A DNA stretch of 42,387 nt from Deltaproteobacteria bacterium (GCA_015233625.1 JADFXK010000001.1:9537-51923), one strand, 5' to 3'. Positions 5,462-42,387 are shown, counted from the first letter of the stretch. Program-made: numbers and translations. The notes: a model not told the origin generated them from the letters alone.

Positions 5462-5926
5462 TTGAAAATCAATTTTATCTTAAATGGTCGAGAAATCGAA
5501 CTGACGGCCCCGTCCGATGTCCGGGTGGTGGATCTGTTGCGGGAAGAACTCGAACTGACCGGGACCAAAGAATCGTGCGGTTCAGGCGAATGCGGATCTT
5601 GCACTATCCTGGTGGATGGCCAGAGCCGCCTGTCTTGCCTGATGCTGGCCGCCCAACTCCAGGGCCGGGAAGTGACCACGATCGAAGGGTTGGCCGATGA
5701 CGCTGGACGGCATCCGGTCCAGGAGGCTTTTGTCCAGGCCGGGGCGGTCCAATGCGGTTTCTGTACTCCCGGAATGGTCCTGGCCGCGGTTGATTTGCTG
5801 GATCGCCGGCCCGATCCTTCCCGCTCGGAGATAAGAGAAGGACTTAGTGGCAACTTGTGCCGCTGCACCGGTTACCAGAAGATTGTCGATGCGGTGGAAA
5901 TGGCTGTCCATCGAGAGGAAGGTTAG
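5462..5926 (+). CDS. Xanthine dehydrogenase family 2Fe-2S subunit (CoxS-like)
   Basis: GTKESCGSGECGSCT, QCGFCTPG and NLCRCTGY motifs. TTG start after GAGG. Confidence 0.95.
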   Translation: MKINFILNGREIELTAPSDVRVVDLLREELELTGTKESCGSGECGSCTILVDGQSRLSCLMLAAQLQGREVTTIEGLADDAGRHPVQEAFVQAGAVQCGFCTPGMVLAAVDLLDRRPDPSRSEIREGLSGNLCRCTGYQKIVDAVEMAVHREEG

Positions 5927-30731: not shown

Positions 30732-31152
30732 CTTTCCTTTCAGAGTCCTGGTCGACACAAGTTTCTGGATCGCCCTTTATGACACCAAAGATCGGTGGCA
30801 TAGCCAAGCGGTTGACCGGGAGGGAGTTTTGACTATATCAAATGTCATCCTGCCCTGGCCGATCCTCTACGAGACGTTGCGGACAAGGTTTGTCAAGAAC
30901 AGGCCATGGGGAATACACTTTCGGCTGCTCCTGGGTACTCTCCATGTATCCCATGTCTGCGATACGCCTTACCGGCAACGCGCCTTTGATGACACGGTGA
31001 CCGATTCCAACGTCCGTCGAGGTATCAGCATGATTGACATGTTGATCAGGCTGATGCTGCAAGATAAGAATCTGGGGATAACTCACCTGCTGACATTCAA
31101 CGTGAAAGATTTTGAAGATGTTTGTCGTGAGAGACGGATCGAACTGGTGTAG
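30712..31152 (+). CDS. PIN-domain (VapC-like) nuclease
   Basis: VLVDTSFWIAL..D..H, ILYETL, GISMID and LLTFNVKDF are typical PIN acidic motifs. Likely start is ATG 30712 (or 30718), overlapping the upstream ORF. Confidence 0.85.
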   Translation: MKMTAISFPFRVLVDTSFWIALYDTKDRWHSQAVDREGVLTISNVILPWPILYETLRTRFVKNRPWGIHFRLLLGTLHVSHVCDTPYRQRAFDDTVTDSNVRRGISMIDMLIRLMLQDKNLGITHLLTFNVKDFEDVCRERRIELV

Positions 31153-31201
31153 CCGCCCCAAAGCAAGAGCTAAAGCTGACGATTGACCAAAGGAAGACTA
31201 A

Positions 31202-31687
31202 TTGACTGAATCTTTAAAAAAATACTTAATCCTGATATACGTCGCTGTGCCTGTCCTTATTTTGGATCAGGTGACCAAGGCGATCATTCTTCGGAAGTTG
31301 ACCTTGCACCAGAGCCTGGAGGTGATTCCGGGTTTCTTCAATATTTGCTATGTCCGGAACAAGGGTGCGGCCTTCGGCGTTCTGAATAATCTTTCACCAT
31401 CTTTAACCCGCTATTTATTTATCGCCGTCGGGATCTTGGCCGTGGTGGTCATCGCCTATCTGGTCAATCAAATCAAAGAGGACGGCCGAGGGATGGTGAT
31501 CGCCTTGGGATTGGTCCTGGGCGGGGCGGTGGGCAATAATCTAATCGATCGGGTCAGATGGGGGGAAGTCATCGATTTCCTAGACGTCTACGTCAAGTCC
31601 TATCACTGGCCGGTATTTAATGTCGCTGACTCCGCCATTAGCGTCGGGGCAATTCTTTTGGCCTATCAGATCATCAGGAGGATTTAA
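31202..31687 (+). CDS. lspA: Lipoprotein signal peptidase
   Basis: LDQVTK, NKGAAFG, GAVGNNLIDR, VIDFLD and WPVFNVADSAI motifs, downstream of ileS. Confidence 0.97.
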   Translation: MTESLKKYLILIYVAVPVLILDQVTKAIILRKLTLHQSLEVIPGFFNICYVRNKGAAFGVLNNLSPSLTRYLFIAVGILAVVVIAYLVNQIKEDGRGMVIALGLVLGGAVGNNLIDRVRWGEVIDFLDVYVKSYHWPVFNVADSAISVGAILLAYQIIRRI

Positions 31688-31689
31688 TC

Positions 31690-32475
31690 ATGTTCCCGAC
31701 CATTGTCCGGCTGGGTCCTTTGGCCATCCACACTTACGGTGTTCTTATCGCCACGGCTTTTCTGGCCGGCGTGGGCCTGGCCATGCGGGAAGCCCGGCGG
31801 TTGGGCCAGGACCCGACCAAGGTCATGGACCTGTCTCTATATATCGTCATCTCCGCCATTGTTGGTTCCCGCTTACTCTATGTCCTGCTTAAATTTGATT
31901 ACTATATCAAAAAGCCCCTAAATATCTTTATGATTTGGGAAGGCGGGCTGGTCTTTTACGGTGGTTTGATAGGTGCCTTGATCGTGGGTCTGTGGTACAT
32001 GCGGCGGCATGGGCTGAATATGTGGCAGACCTGCGATATCTTTGCTCCGTCTCTGCCGCTGGGCCAGGCCATTGGCCGGCTGGGTTGTTTTTCGGCGGGA
32101 TGTTGCTATGGCAGCCCCACCAACCTCCCCTGGGCCGTGACCTTCACCAATCCCGAGACCTTGGCCTCACCCCTGGGCGTGCCGATCCATCCCACCCAGT
32201 TGTATTCTTCGGCCATTGGTTTGGTGATTTTCCTCATTCTAATGATCATGCGGAAACACAAAAAGTTCGACGGCCAGTTGATCTGGGTCTATGTCGTCTT
32301 GTCGGGAATAGGACGTTTCTTCGACGAATTCTGCCGGGCTGATTTCCGCGGTCCGGAAGTCTTCGGCGTCATTTCCACCACCCAGGCGATCAGCATTGTC
32401 AGCGTCATAGTCGGCGTGGTCATGCTCATCATCTTAGGCAAGAAGCACCAGTTGGCACCTAGGCCCAACCCGTGA
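31690..32475 (+). CDS. lgt: Prolipoprotein diacylglyceryl transferase
   Basis: IWEGGLVFYGG, GQAIGRLGCF..GCCYG, HPTQLY and RFFDEFCR motifs. Confidence 0.97.
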   Translation: MFPTIVRLGPLAIHTYGVLIATAFLAGVGLAMREARRLGQDPTKVMDLSLYIVISAIVGSRLLYVLLKFDYYIKKPLNIFMIWEGGLVFYGGLIGALIVGLWYMRRHGLNMWQTCDIFAPSLPLGQAIGRLGCFSAGCCYGSPTNLPWAVTFTNPETLASPLGVPIHPTQLYSSAIGLVIFLILMIMRKHKKFDGQLIWVYVVLSGIGRFFDEFCRADFRGPEVFGVISTTQAISIVSVIVGVVMLIILGKKHQLAPRPNP

Positions 32476-32491
32476 AACTAACCACCTAAGC

Positions 32492-32545
32492 AAAAAACAC
32501 GACGCAGAGGTTTTCAGAGTTTCTCGAAGACCTCTGCGTTTTTTT
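32492..32545. terminator. Bidirectional intrinsic terminator between lgt and pirin
   Basis: A-run, then ACGCAGAGGTTTTC ... GAAGACCTCTGCGT stem, then T-run, between convergent genes. Confidence 0.75.
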
Positions 32546-32600
32546 ATCCAGAAGACTCTGTGATGCCGTGTTCCAGTCCGGTACAGCACCTCGTTGGCCG

Positions 32601-33347
32601 TTATCTCCGCATCCCCCGAAGCGTTTCTTCGCTGTAGCCCCACCCCTTGCACGACGGGACGTCGATGAGAATGAAATCAGCATCTTTGTAAGCTTCAAAA
32701 TTCAAGGGTGCCTCGGTATCGATTCGGGCCTGCCCGCCTTCCTCAACCTGCCGGCCATTGATGGCTAACATCCCCTTGGTCAGGTAGACGAAGATCCGAC
32801 GCCCGCGGGTGGCCTCGAAGGACAGCTCCTGGTCCTTATCCAGGTCGGCCCGGTAAATAGTCGCGTCTGCGTGTAACGTAACGGTATCCGGAATGCCCCG
32901 CCCGGAAGCCACCGGGAAAAGTGTGTTCATCCATAACACTGGCGCATATGTTTTTTGGTCATAGGTTGGCTGAAGTCCGGATTTGTCCGGGAAGATCCAG
33001 ATTTGATAGAAATGGACTGGATTATCGGCCAGATTGAATTCGGAATGGGTTAGCCCGGTCCCGGCTGACATACGTTGGACATCATTGGCCTGGATGACCG
33101 CCTGGTTGCCCATGCTGTCCTCATGCGTGATTTCGCCCTGGAGGACGATAGTGACGATCTCCATTTCCTGGTGGGGATGAGTCGGGAAGCCGGTTCCCGG
33201 GGCCACCACATCATCATTAAACACCCGCAAAGCGCCAAACTGGATGTTGTGCGGATCGAAATAGTTGGCGAATGAAAACAACCAGTAGGTCTTCAGCCAG
33301 CCGAAGTTGCTGAAATGGCGCTCCTCTTTCCTGATGATCTGAATCAT
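32601..33347 (-). CDS. Pirin family protein (YhhW-like)
   Basis: FSFANYFDP, FGALRVFNDD, GFPTHPH, HEDSMGN, MSAGTG.THSE and QIWI motifs. ATG 33347 follows AGGAGGAG. Confidence 0.95.
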   Translation of the reverse strand: MIQIIRKEERHFSNFGWLKTYWLFSFANYFDPHNIQFGALRVFNDDVVAPGTGFPTHPHQEMEIVTIVLQGEITHEDSMGNQAVIQANDVQRMSAGTGLTHSEFNLADNPVHFYQIWIFPDKSGLQPTYDQKTYAPVLWMNTLFPVASGRGIPDTVTLHADATIYRADLDKDQELSFEATRGRRIFVYLTKGMLAINGRQVEEGGQARIDTEAPLNFEAYKDADFILIDVPSCKGWGYSEETLRGMRR

Positions 33348-33357
33348 ATCTCTCCTC

Positions 33358-35199
33358 CTACAAGGCGCAGGGGCAACCGGCCGACCAGAAACGCCCGTCT
33401 GAACCCATGATGACCAGATGGGCATGATTGCCGTCGGGATGCAGGTACCCACAATCGCCGTGCGTGTGCTTGGGCGGGGCGGAGTTGGAATTGTCGTAGC
33501 CTCCGTATCGGGCCACGGGAGACCAGTCCGGGCTGACCGGCGGCATCGGCGGGGCTAGTTCGGAGAACTCTGCTGCGGCATACACGGGTTTTCCGCCTAA
33601 TATGGTCAGGACGCTCTCAATGCCGCGGATCTCATCTTCCTCGACAGCGAAATAATCCGCATTCAAGACGGCCAGGTCAGCCAGATAGCCACTCACCAGC
33701 CGGCCTTTGCGATGGTCATCCCGGCTGAACCAGGCGCTGCCGGAGGTGTACAGCCTCAAAGCTTCCTCGCGACTGAGTCGGGACTTCTTATCGCCGGTAA
33801 GGAGGGTCCCGCCCACGCCCTTGCCAGACACCAGCCACCACAGACAGGTCCAGGGATGATACGAGGCCACCCGAGTTCCGTCTGTTCCGGCCCCGACCGG
33901 CAGGCCCAGTTCCATCATTTTCCGGATTGGCGGTTTGGCCTCCACGGCGGCTCGTCCGTAGCGCCGGATGAAGTATTCCCCCTGGTAGGCCATCCGATGC
34001 TGCACGGCGATGCCTCCGCCCAGGTTCAGGATGCGTTCCATGTTTTGCGGGGTAATCGTTTCGGCGTGGTCGATGAACCAGCGCAGATCATCGATGGGCG
34101 TGTCCCGGTGCACCCTCTCGAATAGATCCAGAAAACGGCCGATGGATTCATTGTAAGTGGCATGGATCCGCCAGGGCCATCGGGCTTCCGCCAGTTTCCG
34201 GATCACCTGTTCCAGTTCGATGTCCATAACCGGCCGGAGTTCGGGGCGAGGCTGCAAAAAATTCTCGAAATCGGCCGCACTCCACACCAGATTCTCGCCG
34301 GCCCCGTTGACCCGGAGCAGGTCGTCGCCGTCACCGGGATGGGTCAGGCCCAGCCACCGGGTGTAATCCTCCGCTTCGGTCCCGGATTTCTGGGCGAACA
34401 GGCTGTAGGCGATCCGGACAGTCAGGTCCCCCGCGTTGGCCAGTTGGCGGATGACCGCATAGTCTTCCGGGTAGTTCTGACCGCCCCCACCCGCATCTGA
34501 GGCGCTGGTGATGCCGAACCGGTTTAGTTCCCTCATGAAATGGCGCGTGGAATTCAACTGGTCCGGGAAGTTCAACTTGGGGGCGGTGGCGATGGCCGAA
34601 TAGAGGATCAGGGCATTGGGTTCGGCGATGAGCAGACCGGTGGGTTGGCCGCGGGCGTCCCGGGCGATCACGCCGCCTGGGGGATTGGGAGTGGTTTCAT
34701 CAAAGCTCAGGGCCCGTAATGCGGCCCGGTTAAGCAGGGCGCAATCGTACAGGTGCAGGACAAAAACGGGAGTGTCCGGAGCGGCCGCGTTGATCTCTTC
34801 CAGGGTCGGCATCCGGCCTTCGGCAAACTGCAGTTCACTCCAGCCGCCGATAACCCGGACCCACTGGGGCGGCGGAGTCCGCTGGGCCTGTTCCTGGAGC
34901 CGACGCATGGCCTCGGCGATCCGGGGCACGCCATCCCACCGCAGTTCCAGGTTGTAAAACAGCCCGGCCCGGATGACGTGCAGGTGGGAGTCGTTGAGCC
35001 CGGGGATCACCCGGCGGCGTCGAAGGTCAATCTGCCGGGTCCCGGCATCACCCAGAGCCAGGATGGTCCGATCATCACCCCCGGCCGTGACCAGTCCGTC
35101 TTTAACGGCCAGGGCGGTGACTTCCGGCTGCCGCGGATCATTGGTGGTGATCCGGCCGTTGTACAGAATCAATTCCGGGGCCGGGTTGGGGCCGGTCAT
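33358..35199 (-). CDS. Amidohydrolase (YtcJ / amidohydro_3 family)
   Basis: PGLNDSHLH, RIHATY, DHAE, GAGTDGTRV and LADLAVL motifs, with a His/Cys-rich tail. Confidence 0.93.
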   Translation of the reverse strand: MTGPNPAPELILYNGRITTNDPRQPEVTALAVKDGLVTAGGDDRTILALGDAGTRQIDLRRRRVIPGLNDSHLHVIRAGLFYNLELRWDGVPRIAEAMRRLQEQAQRTPPPQWVRVIGGWSELQFAEGRMPTLEEINAAAPDTPVFVLHLYDCALLNRAALRALSFDETTPNPPGGVIARDARGQPTGLLIAEPNALILYSAIATAPKLNFPDQLNSTRHFMRELNRFGITSASDAGGGGQNYPEDYAVIRQLANAGDLTVRIAYSLFAQKSGTEAEDYTRWLGLTHPGDGDDLLRVNGAGENLVWSAADFENFLQPRPELRPVMDIELEQVIRKLAEARWPWRIHATYNESIGRFLDLFERVHRDTPIDDLRWFIDHAETITPQNMERILNLGGGIAVQHRMAYQGEYFIRRYGRAAVEAKPPIRKMMELGLPVGAGTDGTRVASYHPWTCLWWLVSGKGVGGTLLTGDKKSRLSREEALRLYTSGSAWFSRDDHRKGRLVSGYLADLAVLNADYFAVEEDEIRGIESVLTILGGKPVYAAAEFSELAPPMPPVSPDWSPVARYGGYDNSNSAPPKHTHGDCGYLHPDGNHAHLVIMGSDGRFWSAGCPCAL

Positions 35200-35231
35200 A
35201 TCGTTCTCTCCCTTTCTGATTTCCTCATCCG

Positions 35232-35486
35232 GTTTGCGTTCGGCGAGTTCGCTGGGCGATCAGGCAACTGCGGTTAGCAAACCAAGACTTTATCCGCAGA
35301 TTACTCAGATTTTCGCAGATTAAGAAAATGCAAAATGATAGTGTCAGAAGGCTTGCATCCAGGCCGCGGTCGGCCAAAGTTCAGCAAATGATCGCAAAGT
35401 CTGTAGTCTCTTTAATCTGCGTTCATCTGCGTAATCTGCGGATACATTTTTTATTTCCCGATTTATAGGGCCCGTCAACCTTAGGT
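35232..35486. mobile_element. MITE-like element, copy 3
   Basis: The left 60 bp align without gaps to copy 1 (GTTCGGCGAGTTCGCTGGGCGATC... vs GTTCGGTGATTTCACTAGGCGATT...). It has the same palindromic core and the right end CCCGTCAACCTTAGGT. Confidence 0.7.
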
Positions 35487-35493
35487 TTTTACA

Positions 35494-36174
35494 CTATTTC
35501 TTCACCACATGCGGATTTTGGGCGGCCTGGGGAGCCTTGTGGACCATGGAATAGGCATACTCGATGCCGCAGCCGTAAGCGCCCGCATGTTCCCGGAACA
35601 GTTGCATGAGCGCATTATAGTGATCATGGTTGGCCCAGTCCCGCTGGAACTCCAGCACCGTGGCCACGGTGGTCATAGGCACGGCCCCCGCCTGGACACA
35701 CCGCCGGATAGCCGCATCATGAGCGACGTGGGAGGTGGCCCCACAGGCATCCTCCACGATGTAGACGTTGTAGCCTTCCTTGAGCATAGCCAGGGTGGGC
35801 CAGGTGACGCAGACCTCCGTCCACAGCCCGGCCACGACGATGTTCTTCTTCCCCGTGGCTTTGACGGCTTCCCGGAACGCGGGCGAGTCCCACGAATTCA
35901 TGCTGGAGCGCTCAATGGGCTGCCGGCCCGGAAGAGCATCCATCAGTTGCGGCCAGATGTAGCCGCTAAACGATTCCGTCTCCACCGCGGTCAAGATGGT
36001 GGGGATGCCGAACTCCCTGGCCCCCTTGGCCAGCAGAACCACATTGTTCATCAGAAGCAGCCGATCGATGTTGGCCACACCGAAAATCATCTGCGGTTGA
36101 TGATCAATGAAGACCACCGCGCAGTTGTCCTTGGTAATAAGGCCACTATCAGTGCCGGGTAGGATGTTCGCCAT
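35494..36174 (-). CDS. YcaC-like isochorismatase-family hydrolase
   Basis: FIDHQPQM, ERSSMNSW, AGLWTEVC (catalytic Cys) and EFQRDW. ATG 36174 follows AAGGAGG. Confidence 0.93.
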   Translation of the reverse strand: MANILPGTDSGLITKDNCAVVFIDHQPQMIFGVANIDRLLLMNNVVLLAKGAREFGIPTILTAVETESFSGYIWPQLMDALPGRQPIERSSMNSWDSPAFREAVKATGKKNIVVAGLWTEVCVTWPTLAMLKEGYNVYIVEDACGATSHVAHDAAIRRCVQAGAVPMTTVATVLEFQRDWANHDHYNALMQLFREHAGAYGCGIEYAYSMVHKAPQAAQNPHVVKK

Positions 36175-36253
36175 GGGACTTCCTCCTTTATCCGTTGTGT
36201 TATCCAACATCAAAACTCTTCTGTGTCGCAATCGACAGCCCCGCCGCAGCCGA

Positions 36254-36461
36254 GGACCATGATTTAATCCGCAGATTGCGCCGATTGGCGCAGATTAAAA
36301 GCAATGCAAAACGCTTGTGCCCGAAGGCTTGCATCCAGGCCTCGGTCGGCCAAAGTTCAGAAAATGATCGCCTGGTCTGTGGTCTCTTTAATCTGCGTTC
36401 ATCTGCGTAATCTGCGGATACCTTTTTGGCCCCCAAATTACCAGACTCGTCGAACTCAGGT
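36254..36461. mobile_element. MITE-like element, copy 4 (left end eroded)
   Basis: The core and spacer are highly similar to copy 3 (GAAGGCTTGCATCCAGGCC.CGGTCGGCCAAAGTTCAG). The right end is clean: ACTCGTCGAACTCAGGT. Confidence 0.75.
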
Positions 36462-36647
36462 TATTCATAGGAAATCAGGTTGCGGCAGGCAGGAAGGGAT
36501 GCCCTCGACCAAACGCGGCTCAAATTCCAAGCATGATATGAGCATTCACTCGGTTTGTAAATAGGGCGGGGGATTCATTTCTCTGGTGATTTTCCCGATT
36601 GGGCATGGATTTTTCCCGGTGGGGTTCATATGGGGGGATGGGTTCGA

Positions 36648-37364
36648 CTAGATGCTGCTCTCTCGTGGTTTAAGAATCATCTTCACTTCGACAACTCGCT
36701 GCTCTCGCGTGGATTGTCCAACAATGCGTACTCGCTGTTCCTCAGTAAACATTTCCAGGACCGTATCAAATTGCTCGACCGGAAAGCTACATTGTCGTTC
36801 TGGTTCACCAATAATCTCTCTCAAAGTAAATGTATATTTATCGCGATCAAGCTCTCTGATGATTCCTTCTTTATCAAATAGGGAAAATTCATCATCCGCT
36901 GAGGTGACTTGTTTTATAATCTCCCCTGGTATATTCTCTTCTTTTATCTGTTGGCCTGTGGCCTTAATCGGCAGTACCGGTTCCAGGTGCGGATAAAGCA
37001 GCACGTCTGCCTCTGGAAGTGCGTCTTCCGGTAAATCTTTTATTTGAATCTGCCAAGACTTCCTGACGCCCCAGTCGGTAGTCGTAATATCAACGAGCCA
37101 CATTATAGGTTGGTCTAATGCCTCCCGAATGGAAATAGTCCCTAACTTCAATTTGTCCACTATTGATGGGCGAGTCGGAGCCACCACGTATCGCAGTATA
37201 TCATCCTGATCATCGCTCAAGTAGGCGATAGCCAAACCGTTCAACGGAGTTTTAAAAGTAAAAATCAACGGTTCGTTGTATTCATACAGCATTTCTTCCG
37301 GAGGAAATAAGTTTCCGATGAGTTCCACCGGGTATTCAGGAGCGCTTACATCCCAAAGAGCCAT
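36648..37364 (-). CDS. Hypothetical protein with DUF6575-like N-terminal domain
   Basis: 238 aa. LYEYNEPLIF...SIREAL...DALPEADVLL resembles DUF6575 (from recollection). The C-terminal GIIRELDRD..TFTLR segment is predicted beta-rich. It starts 2 bp after the upstream ORF. Confidence 0.7.
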   Translation of the reverse strand: MALWDVSAPEYPVELIGNLFPPEEMLYEYNEPLIFTFKTPLNGLAIAYLSDDQDDILRYVVAPTRPSIVDKLKLGTISIREALDQPIMWLVDITTTDWGVRKSWQIQIKDLPEDALPEADVLLYPHLEPVLPIKATGQQIKEENIPGEIIKQVTSADDEFSLFDKEGIIRELDRDKYTFTLREIIGEPERQCSFPVEQFDTVLEMFTEEQRVRIVGQSTREQRVVEVKMILKPRESSI

Positions 37365-37366
37365 GG

Positions 37367-37747
37367 TTATCCCCTGAATATTTCTTGAAAAGTTAAATGG
37401 CTATATTTCCAAAAAGTGGCATGACTCGGTACAGGTCCCTCGGTCATTTTAATCTTACCATGCTCCGGCTTGAGGTCAGCCACAATTATATACCTTTTTC
37501 TACGTGGAAACAACCGGCGTATTTCCACCGCATCTTCGACTGTCGTAGATACAGATAATCCACATCGTTGACACAGGTCCTGTCCCGGTTTGACTGGAAC
37601 ATTCATTTCGTGGAAAGTCTCAATATCGTGCTCACCGGGAGGATTTTCCTTTGAATGCCCATAAGCCGTAATATTTGCATCAACAGCGTCAGCCGGAGGA
37701 CAATTGGCCGGCCAGTCGTCTGGAAATCGCAATTCATCTTCTGGCAT
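37367..37747 (-). CDS. Hypothetical protein, possible ADP-ribosyltransferase/RES-like fold
   Basis: 126 aa with GGAG RBS and the pattern FP..WP..CPP..A, C..CGLSV, G.I and SHATFW. The fold is inferred. Confidence 0.65.
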   Translation of the reverse strand: MPEDELRFPDDWPANCPPADAVDANITAYGHSKENPPGEHDIETFHEMNVPVKPGQDLCQRCGLSVSTTVEDAVEIRRLFPRRKRYIIVADLKPEHGKIKMTEGPVPSHATFWKYSHLTFQEIFRG

Positions 37748-38095
37748 TCGGTTCTCTCCGGTTCGTTTTCACATTATCCTCGTAAAAAATTGATTGATTT
37801 CCTTACGCTATATTTTTTTGAAAGTCAAGAAAGCAGTCGGCCGCCGGTCCCACGACCGGGAGACGAAGTTGCGTGGACCATGCCAGCCGAGCATCTTCTA
37901 GCACCTTGTGATCTTGGCGTTGAGCGAAAAGCCCGCTTCGATAAGCGAAAGGCACCGGCCTTGAACCATGCCTTCAAGGAATGATTCAGGAAAATGTCCA
38001 AGGTAATCTGTCAACGGAGGCTCATTTTGAACGAAACATTGAGCCACGTCGCACATAGTCGCGCAAGAAGCTGAACGGCCGTTCGCTGCGTCGGG

Positions 38096-38560
38096 TTAAG
38101 TCCTTTGATGCGCGTAATGTTTCATTGCCCCTCTGGCTAGCATGCCAACAAGCAAGCATACTACTATGGACCATATAGCTTCTGCAAATATTAAAATGGG
38201 GTATTCAAAGAAATCCTGAGGAGTTATTAAGAAAAAAGTAATTTTCCGAAAAGATTCTCCCCCGATAGCAAATAAAAGCAAGTGGGCGATGACTCTTGCC
38301 TTGGCCGTGCAAGCAATGAGTGCTGCTGGTATTCCAAATGAGATTGACCTAAACAAAAAATGATAAAATAGAACCCGAGGATGGATTACGATTTCATACT
38401 CTCGGGCAACTCTAAAACTATCTTGAATTCCAGTCACGTTTCGAAATTCCACTACGACCGACCAGAATATGGTGTTTTCAGCCGCCGCCAATAATAAGGA
38501 AGCAAGCAAGAACACTATCAATGCTATCAGTAAGCAGTCTATGTTTATTTTTTTCATCAC
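38096..38560 (-). CDS. AT-rich hypothetical membrane protein (about 4 TM)
   Basis: 154-aa hydrophobic ORF. Its stop codon lies inside ACTTAAC (RYYYAAC). Confidence 0.6.
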   Translation of the reverse strand: MMKKINIDCLLIALIVFLLASLLLAAAENTIFWSVVVEFRNVTGIQDSFRVAREYEIVIHPRVLFYHFLFRSISFGIPAALIACTAKARVIAHLLLFAIGGESFRKITFFLITPQDFFEYPILIFAEAIWSIVVCLLVGMLARGAMKHYAHQRT

Positions 38561-38570
38561 ATATCACGAG

Positions 38571-38638
38571 CTTCACCAATCCGGAGACCCTGGCCTCACT
38601 ACTGGGCGTGCCGATCCATCCCACTCAATTATATTCTT
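38571..38638 (+). repeat. Diverged 68-bp copy of an internal lgt segment (32142-32209)
   Basis: 61/68 identity by manual alignment. It translates FTNPETLASLLGVPIHPTQLYS against lgt FTNPETLASPLGVPIHPTQLYS. Confidence 0.9.
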
Positions 38639-38721
38639 TGACGATTGACTTATATGTTTGATAAGGTAGTTTTTGGCATGCCTTAATTTGAAGAGACCCA
38701 CACTTGGAATTTTGCATAAGG

Positions 38722-38793
38722 CTCGGACGCAAATAGCTCAGGGGATGGCAAGAAGTGCAGCTTTTTGCCATCCCCTGGAACGCAATGTTAGAT
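38722..38793 (-). other. attC site (cassette with DUF900-like hydrolase)
   Basis: Minus strand ATCTAAC-ATTGC-GTTCCAGG-GGATGGCAA...TTGCCATCC-CCTGAGC-N7-GTCCGAG, starting 2 bp after the stop codon. R'' is perfect and R' is degenerate. Confidence 0.75.
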
Positions 38794-38795
38794 AT

Positions 38796-39785
38796 CTATT
38801 TAGTGCGTACCAGTTTGAGTTTCCCATCTGATCCCGCTACTCGGGTAGGAATAACTGATCTATCGAGATCACCTTTTATAGTTTCAAAGAGATCGCGTGC
38901 AAATAGCTTATTGCCAATATGCCAGGAGTGATCGAAAGAGCCTAAGACATTCGTTTGGTCTGCCTTTTTGATCTCTTCATTTGAATCAAGTACCCTGAAG
39001 TAATCTGTGCAATCGATATTTACACCCTTTGTCGGAGCGTCGGCGGGCAATCCTACACGCCCAACTCGTGGTGCCAGACCTAGGCGCTTTGCATTGGATA
39101 GCTTCAACACCGAGTCACACAAGTTTGAGTAGTTCGTCAACCTGGTACAGTGCCTATACAAAGAATCTGTTGAGCTATTTCCATTAGTTAAAGAGGAAGA
39201 GGAGATATCGCCACCAATGAACGCAACCTGGCTGACAGTCCATGAGTTATTTGGTAGACGGGCGTCGTCGGCGTCGTCAAAGGCCTCTCGGATTACGTAT
39301 GCACCGGTTGAATGGCCGAGCAAATGGATATTGATGGTGCAATCCGGAGCTTGTCGAGCTGATAGTGCCAAAATTCCATCGGACACAAGTTGCATAGCCG
39401 TTTTCTTCGCATCGTGTCTGTCTTCCAGGTAGTTGATAGCCCAGTCATCGCTTGGCCAGTCGAATGACAAAATTTCACCTTTAAAACCTACGGAAGTCAA
39501 ATCACTCTTGAGCTGTGCATGGCGATCCATCACGGTTTTCTGGTTGTTGTTGTACCCATGCACAAATACGAGCAAATCACCTCGATCTCGCCCGCCGTTA
39601 CGAGAATCTTTGCCCCACGTTGCAGCCGTGCGTAGTTTCTTAAACCATTGATTAGTGTTCTTCACTGCCTGCTTTGGTGATGGAAGGTCGCCTTCCGGAA
39701 CAATCAAGAATAAGGATGGTCCGGGTTCGGCTATAAAGACACCACCTTCCACGGCACGGGCGCACATGACAAATTGGTCAGCCAT
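38796..39785 (-). CDS. Alpha/beta hydrolase (DUF900-like), integron cassette ORF
   Basis: LVFVHGYNN, FDWPS, HLLGHSTG (nucleophile elbow), DSVLKLS and DHSWH motifs, with AGGAG RBS. Confidence 0.9.
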   Translation of the reverse strand: MADQFVMCARAVEGGVFIAEPGPSLFLIVPEGDLPSPKQAVKNTNQWFKKLRTAATWGKDSRNGGRDRGDLLVFVHGYNNNQKTVMDRHAQLKSDLTSVGFKGEILSFDWPSDDWAINYLEDRHDAKKTAMQLVSDGILALSARQAPDCTINIHLLGHSTGAYVIREAFDDADDARLPNNSWTVSQVAFIGGDISSSSLTNGNSSTDSLYRHCTRLTNYSNLCDSVLKLSNAKRLGLAPRVGRVGLPADAPTKGVNIDCTDYFRVLDSNEEIKKADQTNVLGSFDHSWHIGNKLFARDLFETIKGDLDRSVIPTRVAGSDGKLKLVRTK

Positions 39786-39807
39786 TCTATTCTCCTATAG
39801 TGGTAAA

Positions 39808-39895
39808 GCCTAACGCCCGCCACCAGCCACTGCCGGAAGCCGAACCGACGCAGGAGCATAGGCTGTTCCCAGTCGGCTGCAAACCCTTGTCGGCT
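39808..39895 (-). other. attC site (cassette with GH19 enzyme)
   Basis: Minus strand AGCCGAC-AAGGG-TTTGCAGC-CGACTGGGAA...TTCCGGCAGTG-GCTGGTG-GCGGGC-GTTAGGC. R' is a perfect GTTRRRY and R'' is degenerate. Confidence 0.75.
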
Positions 39896-39952
39896 AGGAC
39901 GTTAGAACAGACATTGGCAAGGTCTAAGGTGAGTTTGCCTCCTGGGTTGGTA

Positions 39953-40846
39953 TTATGACTGCGCTGAATTCTTTACTCCCTTGATTGTATCAAGTCCTCG
40001 CTTGATGGCATCTTCGGTGACCGGGCTGGCGATACCATCAGCAACAATGCCCACAGCAGCTTGAAAGTTCTTCACGGCCTGGCGCGTGGCTGGGCCATAG
40101 CGACCGTCAACGACGAGTTTAGGCACTGCCCCAAGGTCGTTGAGGGCTTTCTGAAGCCTCTCCACATTGTCGTCTTCGACGCTGGTTTGCCAAGGCTCCG
40201 CATCGGCGTTCAGCAACGGCCACACCATGTTGAACCATGCTTCCCGTTCGTCGAGTCCTGTCAAGCCACCGTTGATGCGCTTGGTGATGGTGATGATATC
40301 GTTCTTGTCCGCAAATGTGTTAAGGTTGTTTTCAGTCCACTCACCTACGGCTGGCTTCAAGGCGTGTGCAGGGTAAGTCACCAAATCGGGGTTGCCTACG
40401 AAATTAACTCCACAGAGGGTACCCATGTGCTGGTGGTTTCGTCGTCCAGTGGTTTGGAACATCCCGTTACCACGATAGAGAAATCCATCGCCTCGCTGTG
40501 TATTGCCGAGATCGTGCGCCTTGGACGGGTTGCCGAGGCCATAAACCCTCTCGGCGATGTCTTCCGGGTGGTGGGCGAGTGTCTCTGCCTCATCAGCCGT
40601 CACCGCAGCGCTATGATGGGCGCCAAATATCTTGAGGAGTCGCTGTGCAGAGTAGTTCATATTCTCGCGCAGGATCGTGAAGCCACCCGTCTCGTGCAAG
40701 GCCTGAGCCAGGAAATGCGTCATGCGCAGCGGTGTCGTGATCCTGTGTTCCTTAAACAGTGAGTCGCCTTGGCGGATTGCCTCAAGGTAATTGTCGAGCG
40801 CGTTGGTAGCCGTACGTCTGACCACGTTGATAGTATTGATCGTCAT
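39953..40846 (-). CDS. Glycoside hydrolase family 19 (lysozyme/chitinase-like) with C-terminal peptidoglycan-binding domain, cassette ORF
   Basis: HFLAQALHETGG, LGN...DGFLYRGNG.FQTTGR.N, ITKRINGG and LQKALN..G...VDG.YGPAT..AV..FQ motifs. ATG 40846 follows GGAGGT. Confidence 0.92.
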   Translation of the reverse strand: MTINTINVVRRTATNALDNYLEAIRQGDSLFKEHRITTPLRMTHFLAQALHETGGFTILRENMNYSAQRLLKIFGAHHSAAVTADEAETLAHHPEDIAERVYGLGNPSKAHDLGNTQRGDGFLYRGNGMFQTTGRRNHQHMGTLCGVNFVGNPDLVTYPAHALKPAVGEWTENNLNTFADKNDIITITKRINGGLTGLDEREAWFNMVWPLLNADAEPWQTSVEDDNVERLQKALNDLGAVPKLVVDGRYGPATRQAVKNFQAAVGIVADGIASPVTEDAIKRGLDTIKGVKNSAQS

Positions 40847-40907
40847 GAAATCTACCTCCATTTTTGTCTGTGTTCGGTTGGAGAAGAAATCTGGACACCC
40901 CCGCGAA

Positions 40908-41011
40908 GTCGAACGTCGCGGGTAACTCCTTAACGACCATGGGCATGGGCTTGCAATAAAGGACTCCGAATACGCCCTATGGTTGCTCAACGGGTTAACT
41001 CGCTGTCAGGT
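40908..41011 (-). other. attC site (cassette with Macro-SEFIR/TIR fusion)
   Basis: Minus strand ACCTGAC-AGCGA-GTTAAC...ACCATAGGGCGT...ATGCCCATGGT...GTTACC-CGCGAC-GTTCGAC, an imperfect palindrome starting 9 bp after the stop codon. Confidence 0.72.
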
Positions 41012-41020
41012 CATTATGTT

Positions 41021-42016
41021 CTATACCCAAACAGGTGGCTTCCCGACCGGCGGTGCAAGATCGATGTTATAGAGTTCCTTAAGAAGTCTTGTCCAGATTT
41101 CTCTACCATCATCGGCAGGGGCACAATGAAAGCAGTATTTTGTCTTTAAGTACTTGGGAACACCTTTCTCGAAATCCTGTTCTCTGATGATAGCCAGATA
41201 TTTGTTGTTGCCAGCCGGAAGATTCAACAGATCACCTTGAATAATCATCGTCTCCCATCCAACTCCGCCCGAGCGGCCGTCAGCCTTCGCAGCATATTGT
41301 GCATCTGAGACAATTACCACTCTGTCGGCCATTGCCAATTCGTTCGTCATCCATTGGGGCAGATCCATACCCTCGCGCAAGTGCCATTGGTCGAGACGTG
41401 CTTCGATGCCGTTGTCCCTTAGGTATGTCGCAAGCCCTGCCACCCAGCCCTTCTGCTCTTGGGTTGCACCAGTGTAGCTTATGAATACCCGAATCGGTTC
41501 TTTGACCTGTGGCTGCGGGACCAGGCCGGGGCCCGATGGTTTGACGTAGTTACTGAGGCGACGAAAAACATTCTCATGCAAGATGCTGATGGTTAGGATT
41601 GCATCCGGATGCGCTTTACTTTTAAAGCCCTCTGCAATTGCGTCAACCACATGCTCACTTCGGAGCCCGCCCGCACCTGCACCTAGGAGTGGAGCCGATA
41701 CAGCTCTGACTGATGAGTAATCTTGTGTGGCCGAGCCAAGCCGCGTTCCTATCAACCGAATAGCTGCGGTGGTAGAATGCATATTTATTACAGAGGCCGC
41801 AAATGCGACGTATTGAGCGATGTTCTCGCCACCTGTGAAGGGCATAATATCTACCTGGCCCAGCTCATATGCCCTTTTTGGGTCCGGTATCCTGTACTCT
41901 TGAAGTGCTGTAGCAACAAAACTCGTTATCGTCCCGCCCGTTGAGCAGGGCAATACAACTAAATCGGATGGCCCGTCAAATATGTTACCAAGTCGCAACT
42001 TAACAAGAGCAGCCAT
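41021..42016 (-). CDS. Macro-domain + SEFIR/TIR-domain fusion protein, cassette ORF
   Basis: The N-terminal half has LGNIF...DLVVLP...APLLGAGAGG (macro). The C-terminal half has VFISY, WV..LA..LR.NGI...LDQW.L..G.DL..WM and KADGRSGGVGWE (SEFIR/TIR with Glu retained). ATG 42016 follows AAGGAGG. Confidence 0.88.
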   Translation of the reverse strand: MAALVKLRLGNIFDGPSDLVVLPCSTGGTITSFVATALQEYRIPDPKRAYELGQVDIMPFTGGENIAQYVAFAASVINMHSTTAAIRLIGTRLGSATQDYSSVRAVSAPLLGAGAGGLRSEHVVDAIAEGFKSKAHPDAILTISILHENVFRRLSNYVKPSGPGLVPQPQVKEPIRVFISYTGATQEQKGWVAGLATYLRDNGIEARLDQWHLREGMDLPQWMTNELAMADRVVIVSDAQYAAKADGRSGGVGWETMIIQGDLLNLPAGNNKYLAIIREQDFEKGVPKYLKTKYCFHCAPADDGREIWTRLLKELYNIDLAPPVGKPPVWV

Positions 42017-42063
42017 TGTTGAAATCCTCCTTACACATGACTTAGTCTCTACACGTTCTGGAG

Positions 42064-42320
42064 TCGTAACGTTCGACATGAACGGATTACACCGGCTTGG
42101 CCGTAGCGGTCGTTCGATGGCCCGATTTGGCAGTTCCGCTTACAGGTGCACCGGCCAATTTGTGTTGCCAACCTTTAGGAATCAGGTTGAGGCGGCTTCC
42201 AATTTCAGCAATGAAGTCTGTGAATGTGCGGCTTATCTGGTGAATGCCGTATTGAGTGTGATATACTACTCCAACTTAGGTTGTGACAGGCACGATTATT
42301 GCTTGCAAGCTGTGTTATAG
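42064..42320 (-). other. Probable long or degenerate attC site upstream of the Macro-TIR cassette
   Basis: The right arm CCGTTCATG-TCGAAC-GTTACGA is attC-like. A candidate left arm CTATAAC-ACAG-CTTGCAAG lies 14 bp after a minus-strand stop (42335-42337). The left boundary is uncertain. Confidence 0.4.
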
Positions 42321-42387
42321 ACAAAAACAATATCTCATATATCCTCTAAAAGCCATAGTCCGTTTCGGACTTTCAACTTATTGCTTT

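Follow-up and report, generated by a model that had tools for sequence, protein, structure and literature searches.

We suggest, at somewhat better than even probability, that the segment between 38.7 and 42.1 kb of the window, by which we mean the whole 42,387-nt stretch of DNA analysed (Deltaproteobacteria bacterium, JADFXK010000001.1:9537-51923), is a short cluster of integron-derived gene cassettes with worn attC sites that lies in a hypervariable defence hot spot. In this model, the genes for a Macro-SEFIR protein, a GH19-type lysozyme and a DUF900 hydrolase would each retain a worn attC at the 3' end, and the cluster would be placed between pirin-side core genes on one side and, past an IS630-like insertion, SIR2 and the core genes of contig C615 on the other. 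The cassettes would have left integrons elsewhere by excision, and a trans-acting integrase would then have inserted them here, or beside one another, by recombining attC with attC or attC with a genome site; the integrase gene itself is absent at the locus. Later decay would have cost site A its AAC, site C its GTT and site B its conserved inner bases. We infer that the genes are now fixed and immobile, and they are probably expressed from local promoters. On this reading, the arrangement is of a known kind and is not an active integron; strictly, it is a CALIN-like relic and not a demonstrable CALIN.

The gene content agrees with the sequence-only reading of the window, which had described three co-oriented minus-strand ORFs; ORF calls together with Pfam and PADLOC assignments confirm all three. 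The Macro-SEFIR gene (41021..42079, minus strand) has its likely true start at 42016, with an AAGGAGG ribosome site, and its homologues start near residue 22 of the ORF as called. Its product matches TIR_2/SEFIR in Pfam and bSEFIR in PADLOC (2.5e-50). In a structure search with the AlphaFold model (pLDDT 80), the N-terminal half resembles macro domains and the C-terminal half the prokaryotic SEFIR domain 5Y8E (31% identity); ESM Atlas leads for the N-terminal domain were all below 0.85, and it is the structure search that settles this domain as a predicted macro fold. The lysozyme-like gene (39953..40846, minus strand; ORF 39953-40990, likely start 40846) combines a GH19-like catalytic part with a peptidoglycan-binding domain (PG_binding_1 4.2e-14; Glyco_hydro_19 3e-4, sub-threshold; both Pfam), and a homologue search in 400 other genomes of the same phylum gave only three distant matches, which is uninformative on its cassette status. 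The DUF900 alpha/beta hydrolase gene (38796..39785, minus strand; Pfam 1.4e-15) has relatives with up to 83% identity in several phyla, and these are encoded in 279 of 444 candidate stretches from the species genome collection.

To score the intergenic spacers we used three covariance models of attC (R1, R2 and R3) built in-house from integrase-adjacent arrays of the same phylum; the training set comprises one phylum plus Macro-SEFIR loci, and the calibration is rough. The models are specific in that the 82 matches that R1 gives across 41 integrase-adjacent loci are all on the expected strand. Two of the three palindromes in the window, sites A and C, are its top two matches under all three models alike, both on the minus strand, while the plus strand has no comparable match. 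These matches are weak, with 10-18 bits and E-values of 0.06-3.7 per window versus 28-66 bits for the 70 array sites that went into R2; the best remaining matches in the window after A and C have 8.8-11.5 bits, and noise matches of about 11 bits were seen at L082:2462-2500 and at window positions 5651-5695. If the E-values are rescaled to the three spacers (576 nt, one strand), site C has approximately 5e-4 and site A 4e-4 to 0.03. Each site directly follows an ORF of its own strand: from stop codon to R'' the distance is 21 nt for B, 46-58 nt for A and 2 nt for C. Each site is also without a conserved AAC or GTT triplet, or without conserved inner bases, and AAC...GTT in R''/R' is found at one site of the three (B, with 5/7 pairs). 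At genome scale, the sites are below attC acceptance with the in-house models (site C, E 7.5). No Rfam family fits any of the sites, and the sole Rfam match in the window is a tRNA.

Site A (39808..39895, minus strand) has GTTAGGC as R', 22 nt ahead of the start codon of the DUF900 gene, and holds the consensus L'' motif CAGCCGAC, as in array attCs. In the model alignment it follows the 7-5-4-1-5-1-4 geometry with one mismatched stem, and its R'' is AGCCGAC, with GAC replacing AAC; a better R'', TTCTAAC, lies at 39901-39907 but with the wrong spacing. It scores 14.8, 10.2 and 16.2 bits under R1, R2 and R3 (E 0.27, 3.7 and 0.063). Site C (38728..38793, minus strand) has the R'' sequence ATCTAAC and a 5-nt spacer followed by an L''/L' hairpin with consensus TTCCAGGGGA...CCCCTGA; GTT is absent at R', and of the two extrahelical bases the second is either paired or deleted. 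Its scores are 11.4 (partial), 18.1 and 14.8 bits (E 1.7, 0.069 and 0.15 per window), the R3 alignment spans 38714-38793, and under R2 it is the second-best site of the 4.59-Mb genome among the matches listed. At the core of site C lies a 17-bp hairpin whose fold is much more stable than that of shuffled sequences (z -4), whereas A and B are not distinct from shuffles, with A at z -1 to -2. Site B (40920..41000, minus strand; R'' AGTTAAC, R' GTTACCC) fits the 7-5-4-1-5-1-4 geometry exactly, with 15 Watson-Crick pairs and one G-U pair of 20, but its covariance score is 2.2 bits, and geometry scores as high as this occur 145 times per 9.17 million strand-bases of the genome. Both of its inner stems are perfect, a property of five sites genome-wide including the canonical attC on contig C208. 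Of the palindromes proposed from the sequence, A and C thus stand as weak top matches of the window, while B stands by geometry only. A scan combining R-boxes with folding energy was dropped, as site A passed it but so did many coding and terminator sites. The reading of A, B and C as terminators was rejected because none of them has a T-tail.

Homologous loci elsewhere support a cassette origin. Among 65 metagenome loci encoding Macro-SEFIR homologues, 17 contain a total of 33 attC matches, all of them oriented with the gene, and in 15 of the 65 a match of 23.8-59.6 bits begins within 160 nt after the gene, the closest relatives (71% identity) included. At the family level, flanking by bona fide attC sites is thus seen for Macro-SEFIR at part of the loci; the nearest homologues have no DNA similarity to site B. 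With the nearest DUF900 homologues, DNA similarity extends 25-49 nt beyond the stop codon and into site C, the 3' tail with site C is common to the homologues at L083 and L084, and a DUF900 copy in Nitrotoga has a 12.3-bit attC-like site at the matching position. Further downstream, at a distance of 1-1.5 kb, loci L084 and L089 have attC matches (23 and 45 bits), and an attC match at E<=1 was found at 2 of the 80 DUF900 loci. The other genes of the cluster are present at none of these 80 loci and at none of the 65 Macro-SEFIR loci; the fixed gene order that an ordinary operon would show among relatives was therefore not seen. Taken together, the claim of gene-cassette architecture is supported for the layout, which is cassette-like, and for the ancestry of at least two of the three genes as judged from homologue loci, but not for the sites, which are too weak genome-wide.

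The locus is variable. The block 36643-42259 is unmatched in three sister genomes except for one 65-nt piece. At the syntenic locus, the sister species G002 has an attC of 32.5 bits (E 2e-5) and the sister G003, in which the locus carries TIR and FRG, has a site of 16.3 bits that follows a different TIR gene; both sites are oriented as here. On the pirin side, the variable region is bordered by a dispersed repeat (copy at 36232..36647), here as well as in both of these sisters. The proximal end of the strain-specific block holds two overlapping genes of 126 and 238 residues (36648..37747, minus strand), and the 238-residue product weakly resembles PD-T4-10_B (PADLOC, 3.2e-6). The stretch 37748-38095 has no match to R1, R2 or R3; a weaker attC candidate that had been proposed at 37835-38101 gave no match of 8.5 bits or more, and a terminator-like hairpin lies at 37858-37838. 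A small membrane protein gene follows (38096..38557, minus strand); its product matches no family, and the gene is not followed by an attC-like site. Between this gene and site C lie a fragment of lgt (38571..38650, plus strand; 38555-38650 aligns at 88% identity with 32126-32221 in the window's own lgt) and the 65-nt element (38663..38727, plus strand), which shares 80% identity with sequence upstream of an unrelated gene on G002 contig C288.

At its other end the window stops, together with the contig, inside the left end (terminal inverted repeat) of an IS630-like element (42264..42387, plus strand), which has split a SIR2_2-family gene. The final 127 nt match the start of C199 at 100% identity and C560:1400-1526 at 94%; in the C560 copy, HTH_33/HTH_32 ORFs come next after the IS end. 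A matching inverted end is found on C615 and C232, and a short TA-flanked derivative on C321. The TA duplication, inverted ends and HTH expected of an IS630 element were seen, and the DDE part is absent from the assembly. On the window side, the SIR2 gene retains its 3' end of 57 codons plus stop (42087..42263, minus strand), and the 5' part lies on C615:951-127; with one copy of the TA target (42262-42263) removed, a single open frame of 333 codons runs across the junction. The C615 part matches SIR2_2 (1.1e-19), and ThsA/SIR2 matches in PADLOC are weak (approximately 7e-9) and confined to the SIR2 part. Contig C232 was rejected as alternative junction partner because that junction gives no open frame. 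The far flank thus reads IS, SIR2 and then core genes on C615, and neither an attC match nor an R'-type boundary was found on C615 upstream of SIR2; likewise, no attC-like boundary was found upstream of Macro-SEFIR. As a consequence, the sequence-only reading loses its support here: the candidate attC at 42064-42320 is the 3' coding end of SIR2 plus the inverted-repeat end of the IS, the minus-strand frame ending at 42335, which had been taken as continuation of the array, falls within the IS end, and the array proposed to extend beyond the window towards the rest of an integron gives way to an IS630-like insertion in SIR2 on the way to core genes.

A search for intI, which had been recommended beyond the window, found no integron integrase at the cut-off (TIGR02249, at least 265 bits) in this MAG (67.8% complete) or in three sister MAGs, with completeness in the range of 61-79%. 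The best match in the genome has 81.9 bits and looks XerC/D-like. At 67.8% completeness, the absence of IntI from the organism is therefore not proven. Integron integrases are common in the phylum, with 103 of 301 genomes above the cut-off, and the genome analysed here has a canonical attC on C208 (43.6 bits); both facts speak for a cassette origin.

Which explanations compete with a relic of integron cassettes? It is possible, if not likely, that the locus represents an ordinary island of defence genes or a hot spot for integration, shaped by non-integron mechanisms (homologous recombination between flanks, dispersed repeats, IS elements), in which the hairpins are incidental and one or two genes belong to families that are cassettes elsewhere. 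Such an island would readily accommodate matches that are weak or sub-threshold, a missing integrase, the 78 of 80 DUF900 loci without an attC match, and the lack of attC-like sites at the 126/238-residue pair, the membrane ORF and SIR2; the dispersed-repeat border, the IS, the lgt fragment and the stray 65-nt element are themselves signs of non-integron rearrangement. However, it leaves unexplained that A and C rank first in the window under three models and on the right strand, that an R'' consensus lies 2 nt past a stop codon and an R' consensus 22 nt ahead of the next start, that an attC-like tail has been kept with the DUF900 gene across lineages, that G002 has a 32.5-bit attC at the syntenic site, and that the hairpins are without terminator tails. 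That the resemblance to attC is due to chance, with palindromes unrelated to attC and an over-read pattern, is what one would suspect from the single E-values of 0.06-3.7 per 42 kb, which are not significant alone, from the commonness of the geometry score of site B and from the folds of A and B; yet the two scoring sites coincide with spacers and a strand that were defined beforehand, giving the rescaled E-values of approximately 5e-4 (C) and 4e-4 to 0.03 (A), and the comparative evidence from the G002 and G003 sites, the DUF900 tails and the attCs of Macro-SEFIR loci opposes chance, which we consider highly improbable.

An active array, whether a CALIN still competent for recombination or the distal part of a complete integron with an unassembled integrase, is hard to reconcile with a far flank that leads from IS to SIR2 to core genes and contains neither intI nor an attC match, with the same bounded locus in G003 being likewise without intI, and with sites that each miss a conserved element needed for cleavage or score at noise level. 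We therefore judge it very unlikely, although the MAG is 68% complete, integron regions often break assemblies, many of the relatives' IntI matches are at contig ends, the three sites are unlike one another, as is the case in mobile arrays, and a canonical attC is present on C208.

CALINs are clusters of attC sites without an integron integrase and were defined with IntegronFinder (Cury et al. 2016, 10.1101/030866; IntegronFinder 2.0, 10.1101/2022.02.28.482270). We took as CALIN at least two attC sites accepted by a covariance model at its threshold, no more than 4 kb apart and without intI; sites A and C are approximately 1 kb apart, with in-house E-values of 0.06-3.7 per 42 kb and a genome-scale E of 7.5 for site C. 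As in CALINs, the locus is chromosomal, has co-oriented, unrelated and promoter-poor ORFs that are each followed by an attC-type palindrome, and is without an integrase nearby. Unlike in CALINs, two of the three sites are detectable here and at relaxed thresholds only, none passes genome-wide with the in-house models, and A and C each lack either the conserved AAC or the conserved GTT. SALINs and small CALINs have been attributed to integrase-mediated insertion of cassettes at genomic attG sites (10.1101/2022.09.11.507474). The locus resembles these in having isolated cassettes outside any integron and a distal junction of site C that adjoins non-cassette DNA, and canonical single attC sites are dispersed in the genus, namely on C208 of this genome (G000), on C220 and C255 of G001 and on C47 of G002; however, the GWT motif described there is absent at the junction after site C, and the insertion mechanism proposed here is putative. 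Integron cassettes also encode anti-phage defence, as reported in two studies (10.1101/2024.07.02.601719; PMC12614218). The bSEFIR-like, defence-type gene fits this theme as a cassette with homologues flanked by attC matches in metagenomes, but here it sits in a decayed, integrase-less cluster of an environmental MAG, and its defence role is putative.

The C-terminal domain of Macro-SEFIR links the gene to bSEFIR (PADLOC PDLC03957), a single-gene defence system reportedly going back to Millman et al. 2022, through the PADLOC match and the 31% identity to 5Y8E. It differs from bSEFIR in being fused to the N-terminal macro-fold domain and in that the match is limited to profile positions 35-197 of 412. 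The SIR2_2 gene precedes the called Macro-SEFIR ORF by 7 nt, and a Thoeris-like pair (ThsA SIR2 plus ThsB TIR) was considered; it was rejected as a conserved system because SIR2 is not a neighbour at any of the 65 Macro-SEFIR loci.

If our reading is right, the locus shows where integron cassettes end up in a lineage that has been little studied: defence genes would have come as cassettes, been stranded without integrase and be turning into ordinary chromosomal genes, and Macro-SEFIR would join the integron-carried defence genes in nature. Both points extend published ideas on CALINs, SALINs and defence cassettes and open no new ones. A practical lesson is that sub-threshold attC-like palindromes need comparative support before an array is called. 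More tentatively, and in our estimate rather improbably, we speculate that, in this genus, the hot spot between the core genes of the pirin side and those of the XDH side serves a trans-acting integron integrase as a natural landing pad, on which defence cassettes arrive again and again (here Macro-SEFIR, lysozyme and DUF900; in G002 other genes with a 32.5-bit attC; in G003 TIR and FRG), with the attCs then losing AAC or GTT and the genes becoming fixed. If so, the locus would be a field example of the birth and death of integrase-less cassette clusters, and Macro-SEFIR a widespread integron-borne defence cassette.

We suggest, as the most economical account and one to which we give slightly better than an even chance, that the right end of the window holds a small cluster of integron-derived cassettes with decayed attC sites and no integrase, situated in a defence hot spot. 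In this account, cassettes would have been inserted and their attC sites would subsequently have decayed. The window corresponds to positions 9537-51923 of contig C111 in the source genome G000, and its right edge coincides with the contig end. The bulk of it is core chromosome, including IleRS, lspA, lgt and pirin. Beyond ~36.6 kb, every gene is on the minus strand. The first of these are a two-gene pair (126 and 238 residues; 36648-37747), of which the larger protein weakly resembles PD-T4-10_B (3.2e-6) and which may be a further defence pair of the island. Next come the genes for a small membrane protein at 38096-38557 and for a DUF900 hydrolase at 38796-39785. Positions 39953-40846 encode a lysozyme-like protein that combines a peptidoglycan-binding domain with a sub-threshold GH19 match, and 41021-42079 encode a protein of 352 residues whose C-terminal domain is of the SEFIR/TIR type (PADLOC bSEFIR, 2.5e-50). 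In a structure search with an AlphaFold model of the latter (28 input sequences, mean pLDDT 80), the N-terminal half resembles macro domains (TTHA0132, DarG and viral macro domains) and the C-terminal half the prokaryotic SEFIR domain 5Y8E; we refer to it as Macro-SEFIR.

Rfam is without an attC family, and its sole match in the window is a tRNA. We built covariance model R1 from 22 clear attC sites hand-picked in DNA from the array side of 40 integrases. On 41 loci, R1 identified 82 sites, and because all 82 are on the strand predicted by the integrase orientation, we take the model to be specific. Seventy of these sites went into a rebuilt model, R2, and 84 sites, some of them from other phyla, into R3; the calibration of R1-R3 is rough and their training sites are mostly from one phylum. 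With filters off and both strands searched, the top two matches to each model in the 42-kb window are sites A and C, two of the palindromes noted in the sequence-only reading; both are on the minus strand and follow the lysozyme-like and DUF900 genes, respectively. Site A (39808-39895) scores 14.8, 10.2 and 16.2 bits (E 0.27, 3.7 and 0.063) and site C (38728-38793) 11.4 (partial), 18.1 and 14.8 bits (E 1.7, 0.069 and 0.15) with R1, R2 and R3, respectively, and the runner-up matches elsewhere in the window reach 8.8-11.5 bits at best. Because the 70 array sites behind R2 score 28-66 bits, sites A and C are far weaker than array attCs. In site A, R' is perfect (GTTAGGC) and lies 22 nt ahead of the DUF900 start, and L'' carries the consensus CAGCCGAC; its defect is an R'' with GAC in place of AAC. 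In site C, it is R'' that is perfect (ATCTAAC); it lies 2 nt past the stop and is followed by a 5-nt spacer, and the site carries the consensus TTCCAGGGGA...CCCCTGA. Its defect is an R' without GTT. Site B (40920-41000), which follows the Macro-SEFIR gene, has consensus geometry with two correctly placed extrahelical bases and 15 Watson-Crick pairs and one G-U pair of 20, is without the conserved inner bases and scores 2.2 bits. A terminator-type T-tail is absent from all three hairpins.

Homologues of three of the genes were sought elsewhere. Macro-SEFIR was found at 65 metagenome loci (some of them near-duplicates) at up to 71% identity. R2 has 33 matches in 17 of these loci, all 33 in gene orientation; in 15 of the 65, the closest relatives among them, an attC starts at most 160 nt past the gene, and at several loci an additional attC is present just upstream. 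Only two of 80 DUF900 loci (many phyla, identity up to 83%) have an attC match at E<=1, each 1-1.5 kb downstream. In the two nearest DUF900 homologues, DNA similarity extends 25-49 nt beyond the stop into site C, the aligned tails have the R''-spacer-L'' pattern in common, and at the position of site C the copy from Nitrotoga reaches 12.3 bits; thus, as read from these alignments, the DUF900 gene and its attC-like tail have moved together. For the GH19-like gene, a search of 400 other genomes of the phylum yielded just three homologues, all distant. Neither SIR2 nor another cluster gene is near Macro-SEFIR at any of the 65 loci, and no neighbour is common to the window and the 80 DUF900 loci; the ORFs are not kept in one fixed order at these loci.

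DUF900 homologues of 60-83% identity (L083-L162) come from Nitrotoga, Victivallales, Brocadia, Nitrospira, Acidobacteriota and a Bifidobacteriaceae MAG. Identity this high between lineages so far apart suggests that horizontal transfer of this functionally uncharacterized gene has been intense.

The locus differs among sister genomes. Window positions 31000-33533 are present in the sister MAGs G002 and G003 at 86-88% identity, where the dispersed repeat of 36486-36642 adjoins directly, and 36643-42259 is unmatched in the three sister genomes except for one 65-nt piece. At the same place, G002 has two unknown genes and then an attC of 32.5 bits (E 2e-5), and G003 (L078:3548-5470) one TIR_2 and one FRG-domain gene, then an attC-like site of 16.3 bits and the same xanthine-dehydrogenase flank as contig C615; these genes and sites have the orientation of the window's genes. 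Because different genes and attC-type sites occupy the same place, the locus is, by this comparison, a hypervariable hot spot, and attC-type sites occur there in no fewer than two species. A search of the 4.59-Mb source genome (G000; E<=10, 150 of 1235 first-look candidates scored) gave two matches, site C and a canonical attC of 43.6 bits (C208:3896-3955; L067). The latter follows a small ORF of repetitive sequence, and its contig, of 5.6 kb, has no second attC site. Lone attC matches are present in G001 (C220:2467-2529, 46 bits; C255:15625-15685, 31.8 bits), G002 has a further single canonical attC on C47, and isolated cassettes seem to be present in the genus. These single attCs are consistent with a preprint (10.1101/2022.09.11.507474), according to which isolated cassettes are common, as are small clusters without an integrase, and cassettes can be inserted into genomic sites by integrases.

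The alternative that we consider possible, if clearly less probable, is a plain defence island in which the hairpins are incidental. The low scores of all three sites fit this alternative, and the hot spot also bears non-integron scars: its edge is marked by the dispersed repeat, and it contains a piece of lgt, a stray 65-nt element and an insertion sequence. The rank of sites A and C, the cassette-type homologues and the attC-type sites in the sisters argue for integron-derived cassettes instead. That the cassettes form an active array is improbable, as sites A and C each have a defective box. Integron integrases are common in the phylum (TIGR02249 cut-off exceeded in 103 of 301 genomes); none was found with TIGR02249 in G000 (67.8% complete) or the three sister MAGs, all four of which are incomplete. 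Chance resemblance, to which the 145 sites in G000 with a geometry score as high as that of site B would lend themselves, is about equally improbable in light of the strand agreement at the Macro-SEFIR loci and the shared DUF900 tails. We retain decayed, integron-derived cassettes as the preferred account.

The array had also been proposed to continue past the window end. The window closes with 127 nt of repeat sequence, which matches the start of C199 at 100% identity and C560 at 94%; on C560, the next ORFs carry HTH domains of the IS630 type. This IS630-like element has a TA duplication and inverted ends, and C615 begins with its opposite end. Deleting one TA copy gives a 333-codon open frame for a SIR2_2 protein from C615:951 into window 42263-42087; C232, the sole other candidate junction partner, was rejected because this frame is absent. 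Past SIR2, a region conserved with G003 precedes an MFS gene and a gene of xanthine-dehydrogenase type on C615, and no attC match is present upstream of SIR2 on C615. Thus, the array stops inside the window. The minus-strand frame ending at 42335, taken earlier for its continuation, falls within the insertion sequence, and the weaker attC candidates are lost as well, with 42064-42320 being coding sequence and insertion-sequence end and 37748-38095, spanning most of the candidate at ~37835-38101, having no match to any model. The full IS630-like element has at least two left and at least two right junction contigs in the assembly, and a TA-flanked, MITE-like non-coding derivative of ~180 nt with both inverted ends is present at C321:9226-9404 of G000.

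The dispersed repeat (~100-200 nt) lies at 35200-35493 and 36232-36647, on both sides of the isochorismatase gene, and has dozens of copies on other G000 contigs and in all three sisters; in G002 and G003, one copy marks where the variable region is bounded. These two genomes are without the amidohydrolase and isochorismatase genes of 33534-36485 at this place; their pirin flank directly meets the repeat, and this difference is likely a repeat-bounded insertion or deletion. The lgt fragment (38571-38650, plus strand) lies between site C and the membrane ORF, and 38555-38650 is 88% identical to the window's lgt at 32126-32221. The 65-nt element (38663-38727), with 80% identity to a stretch just upstream of an unrelated gene on C288 of G002, is perhaps a regulatory or mobile fragment that both genomes share. 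Finally, ATT replaces GTT at R' in weak or isolated attC-like sites (L083:3491-3560, L083:4338-4397, L079:2833-2920 and window 38728-38734), and one attC-like site in Nitrotoga has AAT-ATT pairing; ATT at R' may represent decay or a variant core.
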